Of a stretch of 5,904 nucleotides of DNA, positions 324 to 716 are shown piece by piece. The stretch's first letter is position 1; each line of letters opens with the position of its first letter. The stretch comes from a virus. Lineage: Duplodnaviria > Heunggongvirae > Uroviricota > Caudoviricetes. The notes under the pieces were generated by a model. The model made no database searches. It worked only from the letters and a program-made list of their open reading frames with translations, and was not told the DNA's origin. Made by a program: the position numbers and the translations under genes. Location of the stretch: IMG/VR virus record IMGVR_UViG_2645728048_000011. The stretch is one strand, 5' to 3'.

Positions 324-364
324 TGTCGAACAAAAAACACTCAATTCGACATACAAAAAACAAA
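324..364. repeat. Two imperfect direct repeats (TCGA-CAAAAAACA) between cosN-like site and terminase small subunit gene; candidate cosB R-type binding elements
   Basis: Plus 324-340 tgtcgaacaaaaaacac and 345-364 ttcgacatacaaaaaacaaa (minus: GTGTTTTTTGTTCGACA / TTTGTTTTTTGTATGTCGAA). Their position and GTTTTTTGT core resemble the lambda cosB R elements. An AT-rich segment with an AATCAA core (376-381) lies between them and cosN. Confidence 0.35.
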
Positions 365-432
365 TAACCATTAATAATCAATAAGATGCAAAGATGATGG
401 TGGCCGATAAAAATGCAAAAACTAGCCTTTTT

Positions 433-478
433 CCGCGACGCTCCCGCCCCGTGGCAGGCCACCCCACCGGAAGGACCC
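433..478. other. cos: cos site core: cosQ-like heptamer (472-478) and cosN-like cohesive-end region (about 438-449), read on minus strand
   Basis: Minus strand reads TGATAATCAC...GGCGGGTCCTTCCGGTG...CCACG-GGGCGGGAGCGT-CGCGGAAAAAGG. This is colinear with the lambda right-end/left-end junction as I recall it (TGATAATCATTATCAC...CGGGTCCTTTCCGGTG...TTACG-GGGCGGCGACCT-CGCGGGTTTTCG). GGGTCCT matches lambda cosQ, 22 nt from the 12-mer (23 in lambda). The 12-mer GGGCGGGAGCGT differs from lambda GGGCGGCGACCT at 4 positions. Confidence 0.6.
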
Positions 479-716
479 GCCAAAATGAGAGTGATTATCA
501 CCATTGCTGATGAATAAATTGATGAAAATCATTGAAACGCCTTTCAGCAAGATAACGGCGACGGTCGTTGTTGAACTCCGTAGCTCTGCTACTAAGGTTA
601 AAAGCATGGCCATCTTTTGCCACCGGCAAATCTTCAATGGATTTCCCCTGCCGGTTTTTTATTCCTCACATTATCGCAGCCCCTCAGTGAAGGGCTGCTG
701 TAATGCCTGCTCTTAC

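Follow-up and report, generated by a model that had tools for sequence, protein, structure and literature searches.

A probable cohesive-end site of a widespread Escherichia cos clade in a lambdoid prophage with an interrupted small terminase gene

Gene content of the prophage late region

The window, by which we mean the whole 5,904-nt stretch of viral DNA analysed here, is the late region of a lambdoid prophage when read on the minus strand. In that direction it encodes a DUF968 protein (5888-4935), the antiterminator Q (4932-4552), a DNA methylase (3396-2344), a holin (2277-2062), a lysozyme (2062-1565), the Rz and Rz1 proteins (1580-1101 and 1348-1163) and, between Rz and the cos site, an ORF with an ORF11CD3 domain (PF10549; 1079-717) for which GTG is the sole start. 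A non-coding stretch follows, and then terS, the gene for the small terminase subunit, which starts at 263. Among complete E. coli genomes the closest is CP182387, which matches window 5904-97 at 99.8% identity in one ungapped piece; beyond the match it encodes a 163-aa DUF1441 protein, a 700-aa large terminase, a portal protein and a fusion of a ClpP-like protease with the major capsid protein, a fused prohead protease/major capsid head type that has been termed Gifsy-2-like (PMC12315714).

Two smaller ORFs can be described in passing. A 148-aa ORF (4021-4467, plus strand) occupies the interval that separates Q from the methylase and is oriented against the late operon; its N-terminus resembles a lipoprotein signal (MNKMTVLLLSATIISGC...), its relatives are annotated as hypothetical, and it may be a moron. 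The ORF at 717-1079 is identical to orf60 of phage cdtI, where the annotation reads "Start codon is not identified", and may be a 5'-truncated gene remnant that has been kept in many prophages.

The window closes with the terminal 97 bp of an IS66-family element (97-1, minus strand; end GTAAGCGTGC...), which are identical at 97/97 positions to IS66-family copies in Stx2 prophages and 96% identical to ISEc22-like elements. Read from 97 to 1 the element opens with GTAAGCGTGCAGC..., in which the family-typical terminal start GTAAGCG adjoins the 3' end of the transposase coding sequence; the C-terminus of the transposase is encoded at 1-60 on the plus strand, and one end only of the element lies in the window. 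The match to intact terS ends at window 98, exactly at the IS boundary. By alignment to the intact 163-aa gene of CP182387, what is left is a 5' fragment of a DUF1441-family terS of about 56 codons (263-98, minus strand), in which the N-terminal helix-turn-helix region is kept and the remainder lost. As to whether the downstream terminase genes are intact, a check that the preliminary description of this DNA had proposed, the answer for terS is that it is interrupted at window 97 by the IS66-family element, and terL falls outside the window. The terS::IS66 junction was absent from complete E. coli genomes and from GTDB species representatives, and the insertion looks like an inactivation of the prophage that is specific to this strain and probably recent.

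The cos site and its alignment to lambda

The preliminary description had proposed a lambda-type cos site on the minus strand, colinear with that of lambda, and had named alignment to the lambda ends as a check. When both ends of the reference record NC_001416 were aligned to the window minus strand the alignment succeeded, and every element that had been named was found in it. With slashes setting off the central 12-mer, lambda reads GATGATAATCATTATCACTTTACGGGTCCTTTCCGGTGATCCGACAGGTTACG / GGGCGGCGACCT / CGCGG and the window reads GGTGATAATCACTCTCATTTTGGCGGGTCCTT-CCGGTGGGGTGGCCTGCCACG / GGGCGGGAGCGT / CGCGG. The cosQ heptamer GGGTCCT (478-472, minus strand), the packaging-termination signal, is identical to the lambda heptamer; it stands in the context CGGGTCCTT-CCGGTG and lies 29 bp from the nick position, as against 30 in lambda. 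The 22-bp cosN, CCACG / GGGCGGGAGCGT / CGCGG (454-433, minus strand), the substrate for staggered nicking by the large subunit TerL, is made up of CCACG (454-450), the 12-mer (449-438) and CGCGG (437-433), and its lambda counterpart is TTACG / GGGCGGCGACCT / CGCGG.

The window and lambda have the left half of cosN, GGGCGG, in common, and also the CG dinucleotides around both nick positions. The 12-mer is a variant, as had been described: GGGCGGGAGCGT differs from the lambda sequence GGGCGGCGACCT at bp 7, 8, 9 and 11, counted from its first G (8/12 identical), and all four mismatches fall in bp 7-12. The composite pattern GGGTCCT-N(18-26)-CGGGGCGG-N6-CGCGG had one match in the window and was found in 0/200 shuffles. 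Counting against the explanation that we favour below are the rotational symmetry of the 16-bp cosN core, which by hand count covers 8 positions versus 10 in lambda, and the distance from cosQ to the nick, which falls 1 bp short of that in lambda. The predicted nicks fall at window 450/449 (minus strand) and 437/438 (plus strand), which would leave GGGCGGGAGCGT (449-438, minus strand) as a 12-nt 5' cohesive end.

To the right of cosN, the flank AAAAAGGCTAGTTTTTG (bp 18-34; 432-416, minus strand) marks this cos clade, being unchanged in relatives whose cosB and TerS differ; its lambda counterpart is GTTTTCGCTATTTATG. Upstream of cosQ, a TGATAATCA block (500-492, minus strand) is common to the window and the lambda right end. 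It is missing from phages Tritos and PhiR40_1, whose cosQ and cosN match the window, and is therefore probably no essential cos element. Scans for Rfam families, tRNAs, promoters and terminators in and near the cos site gave no matches.

Genome ends of related phages

The same position serves as the end of deposited phage genomes. The record of phage cdtI (AB285204 / NC_009514) is 100% identical to window 720-450 (271 nt) and terminates there, and it begins with GGGCGGGAGCGTCGCGGAAAAAGGCTAGTTTTT, which is window 449-417 (33 nt to the right of the nick) and opens exactly at the 12-mer. The linear record of Tritos likewise has this 12-mer at its start and closes with ...GGGTCCTCCCGGTGGGGGCCCCTGCCACG (...CCTGCCACG), although its sequence farther upstream of cosQ is unrelated to the window. 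Tritos, a prophage of LF82, gives rise to virions and was recovered as a plaque (PMC9928086). Over window 482-97, an interval that takes in cosQ, cosN, all of cosB and the 5' part of terS, PhiR40_1 shows 98.7% identity; the alignment has a single mismatch immediately 3' of cosQ and a further two within cosB. PhiR40_1, PhiR47_1 and PhiR55_1 have been used in plaquing assays (bioRxiv 10.1101/2025.11.03.685801).

That the cos site marks the position of the virion genome ends, as had been suggested earlier, agrees with the use of this position as record ends in the related phages cdtI and Tritos. The boundaries of those two records may have been set by analogy with lambda, and the nick positions given above are predictions from lambda homology combined with the ends chosen by the depositors. 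A literature search covering the 12-mer along with its reverse complement and related variants turned up no phage paper in which the window 12-mer is spelled out; the sole phage paper that it returned (PMC12315714) was matched through the mEp213/LLS 12-mer GGGCGGCGCGCT. Already known from the ends of deposited phage genomes, the window 12-mer is ordinary natural variation.

The record of mEp460_4F5 (LR595868; positions 1-30 of our sequence L008) was opened 5 nt to the left of the expected nick and reads CCACGGGGCGGGAGCGCGGAAAAAGG, with 3 nt fewer in the cosN core than all other members of the group. This loss probably arose during assembly, as an artefact where virion-derived reads meet the cohesive ends; a true 3-bp deletion in cosN, if real, would be remarkable.

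The cosB region and the terminase proteins

We defined cosB as the interval between cosN and terS that holds TerS-binding R sequences, the first of them about 47-50 bp from the nick, with an IHF site as an optional component. The interval in the window (bp 35-186; 415-264, minus strand) is presumed to be the binding region of a DUF1441 TerS. Within it, a candidate R3 position lies at 409-393 (minus strand), a candidate IHF-like site, AATCAATAAGATG, with one mismatch to the consensus, at 376-388 on the opposite strand, an inverted repeat (319-330 / 345-356) whose 12-nt arms are 92% complementary and stand 14 nt apart, and a conserved block, AAAGTTGTTCGCACGATGCATGTTTAAA, at 307-280 (minus strand).

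An alignment with relatives that are about 75% identical over cosB showed which parts are kept. These were bp 13-34 and a block at bp ~36-56 that coincides with the location of R3 in lambda; ATTGAT at bp ~68-73, together with an A/T tract; TGTCGA at bp ~98; TTTTTTGTTC at bp ~113; and AAAGTTGTTCGCA(A/C)GATGCATGTTTAAA at bp 143-170. By inspection of the alignment, mEp460-type relatives have a perfect IHF consensus on the opposite strand at bp ~68-73. In the window the IHF consensus with one mismatch was not enriched over shuffles, a TTGTTCGMCA-like repeat motif was likewise not enriched over shuffles, and no similarity to the lambda R sites was found in the window cosB. The TerS and IHF sites proposed for cosB are best regarded as candidates.

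The preliminary description had also placed a terminase small-subunit gene about 186 nt downstream. The position was right, with the terS ATG at 263 falling on bp 187 from the first G of the 12-mer (186 nt on) and the lambda Nu1 start on bp 191; the gene is of the DUF1441 type and is no homologue of Nu1. The intact terS homologue matches Pfam PF07278 (DUF1441; E=4.5e-44) and not Phage_Nu1 (PF07471), and BLASTP of TerS against lambda Nu1 gave no significant match (E=39); both DUF1441 TerS and Nu1 start with an HTH-like segment. The product of the intact homologue is 85% identical to the TerS of mEp460_4F5 and 43% identical to that of cdtI.

In CP182387 and PhiR40_1, terL directly follows terS, and the order in PhiR40_1 is terS, terL, portal. 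The CP182387 TerL matches the Pfam families GpA_ATPase and GpA_nuclease (PF05876, PF20454) and has 25% identity to lambda gpA (E=6e-19). Judged by their protein families, the phages of this clade are ones that combine a gpA-family TerL with a DUF1441 TerS. Packaging specificity is set by TerS and cosB (PMC4669245); since both differ, the specificity encoded here is very probably unlike that of lambda. Membership of the lambda packaging group (lambda, 434, phi80) was considered and rejected, as the TerS is not a Phage_Nu1 protein and the cosB cannot be aligned to that of lambda.

Prevalence and diversity of the cos site

The 40-nt cosN core (window 467-428) is present in 2031 of 5426 complete E. 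coli genomes, with at least 99% identity in 1061 records, and a single genome can hold as many as 7 copies. The species-representative genomes in which the exact cos site was found are those of E. coli and E. ruysiae. It was also seen in metagenome-assembled genomes labelled Veillonella parvula (L132, 4825-4870) and Bacillota bacterium (L134, 7876-7920), whose contigs are most likely mis-binned.

A scan of IMG/VR with a degenerate pattern found at least 120 stretches, with 126 matches among those listed, and the proportions that follow apply to the matches listed. The lambda 12-mer accounted for 68/126 matches and the window 12-mer, the second commonest, for 22/126, always with a cosQ spacing of 29 bp; the remaining matches were ten further 12-mer variants. 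cosQ is highly conserved among lambda-like phages, as are the CG dinucleotides flanking the nicks (PMC4669245), but the IMG/VR sample is no test of cosQ conservation because the scan pattern demanded the heptamer GGGTCCT.

When these listed matches were sorted by flanking sequence, two cos clades were apparent. At the 58 sites with lambda-type flanks (...GTTACG / 12-mer / CGCGGGTTTTCGCTAT) the 12-mer was the canonical one in 56, whereas the 52 sites with window-type flanks (...CCTGCCACG / 12-mer / CGCGGAAAAAGGCTAGTTTTT) had ten different right halves, of which GAGCGT was the most frequent (21/52). The mEp213/LLS type, GGGCGGCGCGCT, described in PMC12315714, belongs to the group with window-type flanks. 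The variety of right halves in this group may reflect neutral drift or diversifying selection. Four listed sites were hybrids that join a window-type left flank, GGGTCCTTCCGGTGGGGTGGCCTGCCACG, to a lambda-type right flank, CGCGGGTTTTCGCTATTTATG (L013 at ~12072, L025 at ~2346, L091 at ~477 and L100 at ~2615), with GGGCGGAAGGCG, GGGCGGCAGCGG or GGGCGGCGACCT as their 12-mers. These hybrids suggest that recombination has occurred inside cosN between the two clades.

Mosaic junctions at window ~416 and ~482 bracket the cos core. The identity to cdtI extends from the lysis genes past cosN to a point about 34 bp to the right of the nick, and that to PhiR40_1 runs from just left of cosQ into terS. The cosQ-cosN core seems to be a joint between exchangeable modules. 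It is conceivable, though we think it improbable, that differing sticky ends act as an isolation barrier, in that mismatched ends cut from the cos sites of co-resident prophages could not cyclise; if true, such a barrier would limit cross-packaging in polylysogens.

Proposed function and alternative explanations

We consider it highly likely that a lambdoid prophage has its cohesive-end site at window ~510-264 (minus strand), and that this site belongs to a cos clade that is widespread in Escherichia and includes cdtI, Tritos, mEp460 and PhiR40_1. By analogy with lambda, TerS would attach to cosB immediately downstream of cosN, probably helped by IHF bending the DNA, and would place TerL so that it nicks cosN at positions 12 bp apart, producing the 5' overhang GGGCGGGAGCGT. 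Packaging would then run toward terS, in the direction of decreasing window coordinates, and would stop at the next cos, where the terminal cut is expected to need both cosN and the cosQ heptamer GGGTCCT 29 bp upstream.

The preliminary description had offered two readings of the variant 12-mer, a cleavage specificity distinct from that of the lambda group or a decayed cos in a defective prophage. In the stronger form of the first, the specificity would be linked to TerL, such that lambda-group terminases and the TerL of this clade could not cut each other's cos sites. The TerL of the relatives is only 25% identical to lambda gpA, and TerL lineage follows the right half of the 12-mer, with identities of at least 98.9% among carriers of GAGCGT or GAGCAT, about 80% for CGCGCT, CTGGCT or CAGCGG and about 77% for CGGACT; the near-invariance of the right half at lambda-flank sites (56/58) against ten forms at window-type sites, among the IMG/VR matches listed, points the same way. 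The correlation is nevertheless no evidence for specificity, because cos and terL adjoin and linkage alone predicts it equally well. Differences in bp 7-12 are common, occurring at bp 9 and 12 in N15 and phiD326 and at bp 8, 9 and 11 in Gifsy-1 (Feiss et al., PMC4669245), and right-half mutations in lambda have a minimal phenotype, with none for C11G as against a roughly 10-fold loss of yield for the symmetric G2C; lambda TerL nicks right-half variants efficiently (PMC4669245). Near-identical cosB regions occur with differing right halves (CAGCGG in L088, GAGCGG in L112), and the hybrid sites are natural recombinants that pair a window-type left flank with a lambda-type right flank. Since all four changes lie in bp 7-12, a variable half in which substitutions are tolerated by lambda TerL (PMC4669245), the 12-mer by itself implies no new cleavage specificity, and we regard a TerL-linked one as unlikely.

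The second reading held in part. The prophage is defective, with an IS in terS, and as its junction is shared by no genome in the collections (complete E. coli and GTDB representatives) the lineage could be a dead end, but the cos itself has not decayed, because viable phages carry essentially the same sequence. Its cosQ, spacer, cosN and right flank are identical to those of cdtI, its cosB differs from that of PhiR40_1 at two positions only, and elsewhere the late region matches prophages whose terminase genes are intact at 99.8% identity, without gaps; the defect is an insertion outside cos and is probably recent. That the site is a non-functional relic is thus very improbable. Still less credible is that it belongs to a PICI that hijacks the terminase of a lambda-like helper. 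PICIs do have cosQ and cosN near-identical to those of their helpers, followed about 100 bp downstream by rpp, a TerS-like HTH gene (PMC9026076), but here Q, the methylase, the holin, the lysozyme and Rz/Rz1 lie upstream of cos, terS starts at bp 187 as in phages, and over its retained 56 codons it is near-identical to the TerS that precedes terL and portal in intact phages. With a lysis cassette upstream and a phage-type TerS downstream, a PICI cos-rpp module was rejected.

Because terS is broken by the IS, the prophage is unable to initiate packaging alone, and its cos would probably be of use only to another phage, co-resident or superinfecting, that acts in trans with a matching TerS, for which the helper phage/passive prophage experiments (PMC4669245) provide a model. 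The practical value of the cos site lies in annotation, since it would fix the position of the virion genome ends for a class of prophages that is very common in E. coli. The site adds nothing new on the mechanism of packaging, since variation at bp 7-12 and the determination of specificity by cosB and TerS have already been published, and the sole local peculiarity of the site is the IS66-family insertion in terS.

Comparison with known cos systems

The lambda cos has the same order and spacing of elements as the window; its right flank is GTTTTCGCTATTTATG versus AAAAAGGCTAGTTTTT, and its R3, R2 and R1 sites are without detectable similarity in the window cosB. In N15, phiD326 and Gifsy-1, the last compared by its published description, variation is confined to bp 7-12 as it is here, with the window adding a change at bp 7. 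Phage cdtI shares the lysis cassette and orf60 with the window and has an intact terS, but it diverges from about bp 34 onward into another cosB and another DUF1441 TerS (43% identity); because both differ, its packaging specificity probably differs from that of the window. The mEp460-like phages (mEp460, mEp460_4F5 and ev081) have the same cosN core, a cosB that is about 75% identical and a TerS that is 85% identical, with intact terminase genes, and they form plaques. PhiR40_1, PhiR47_1 and PhiR55_1 are also plaque-forming and have intact terminase genes, and PhiR40_1 differs from the window in that its sequence to the left of cosQ is unrelated.
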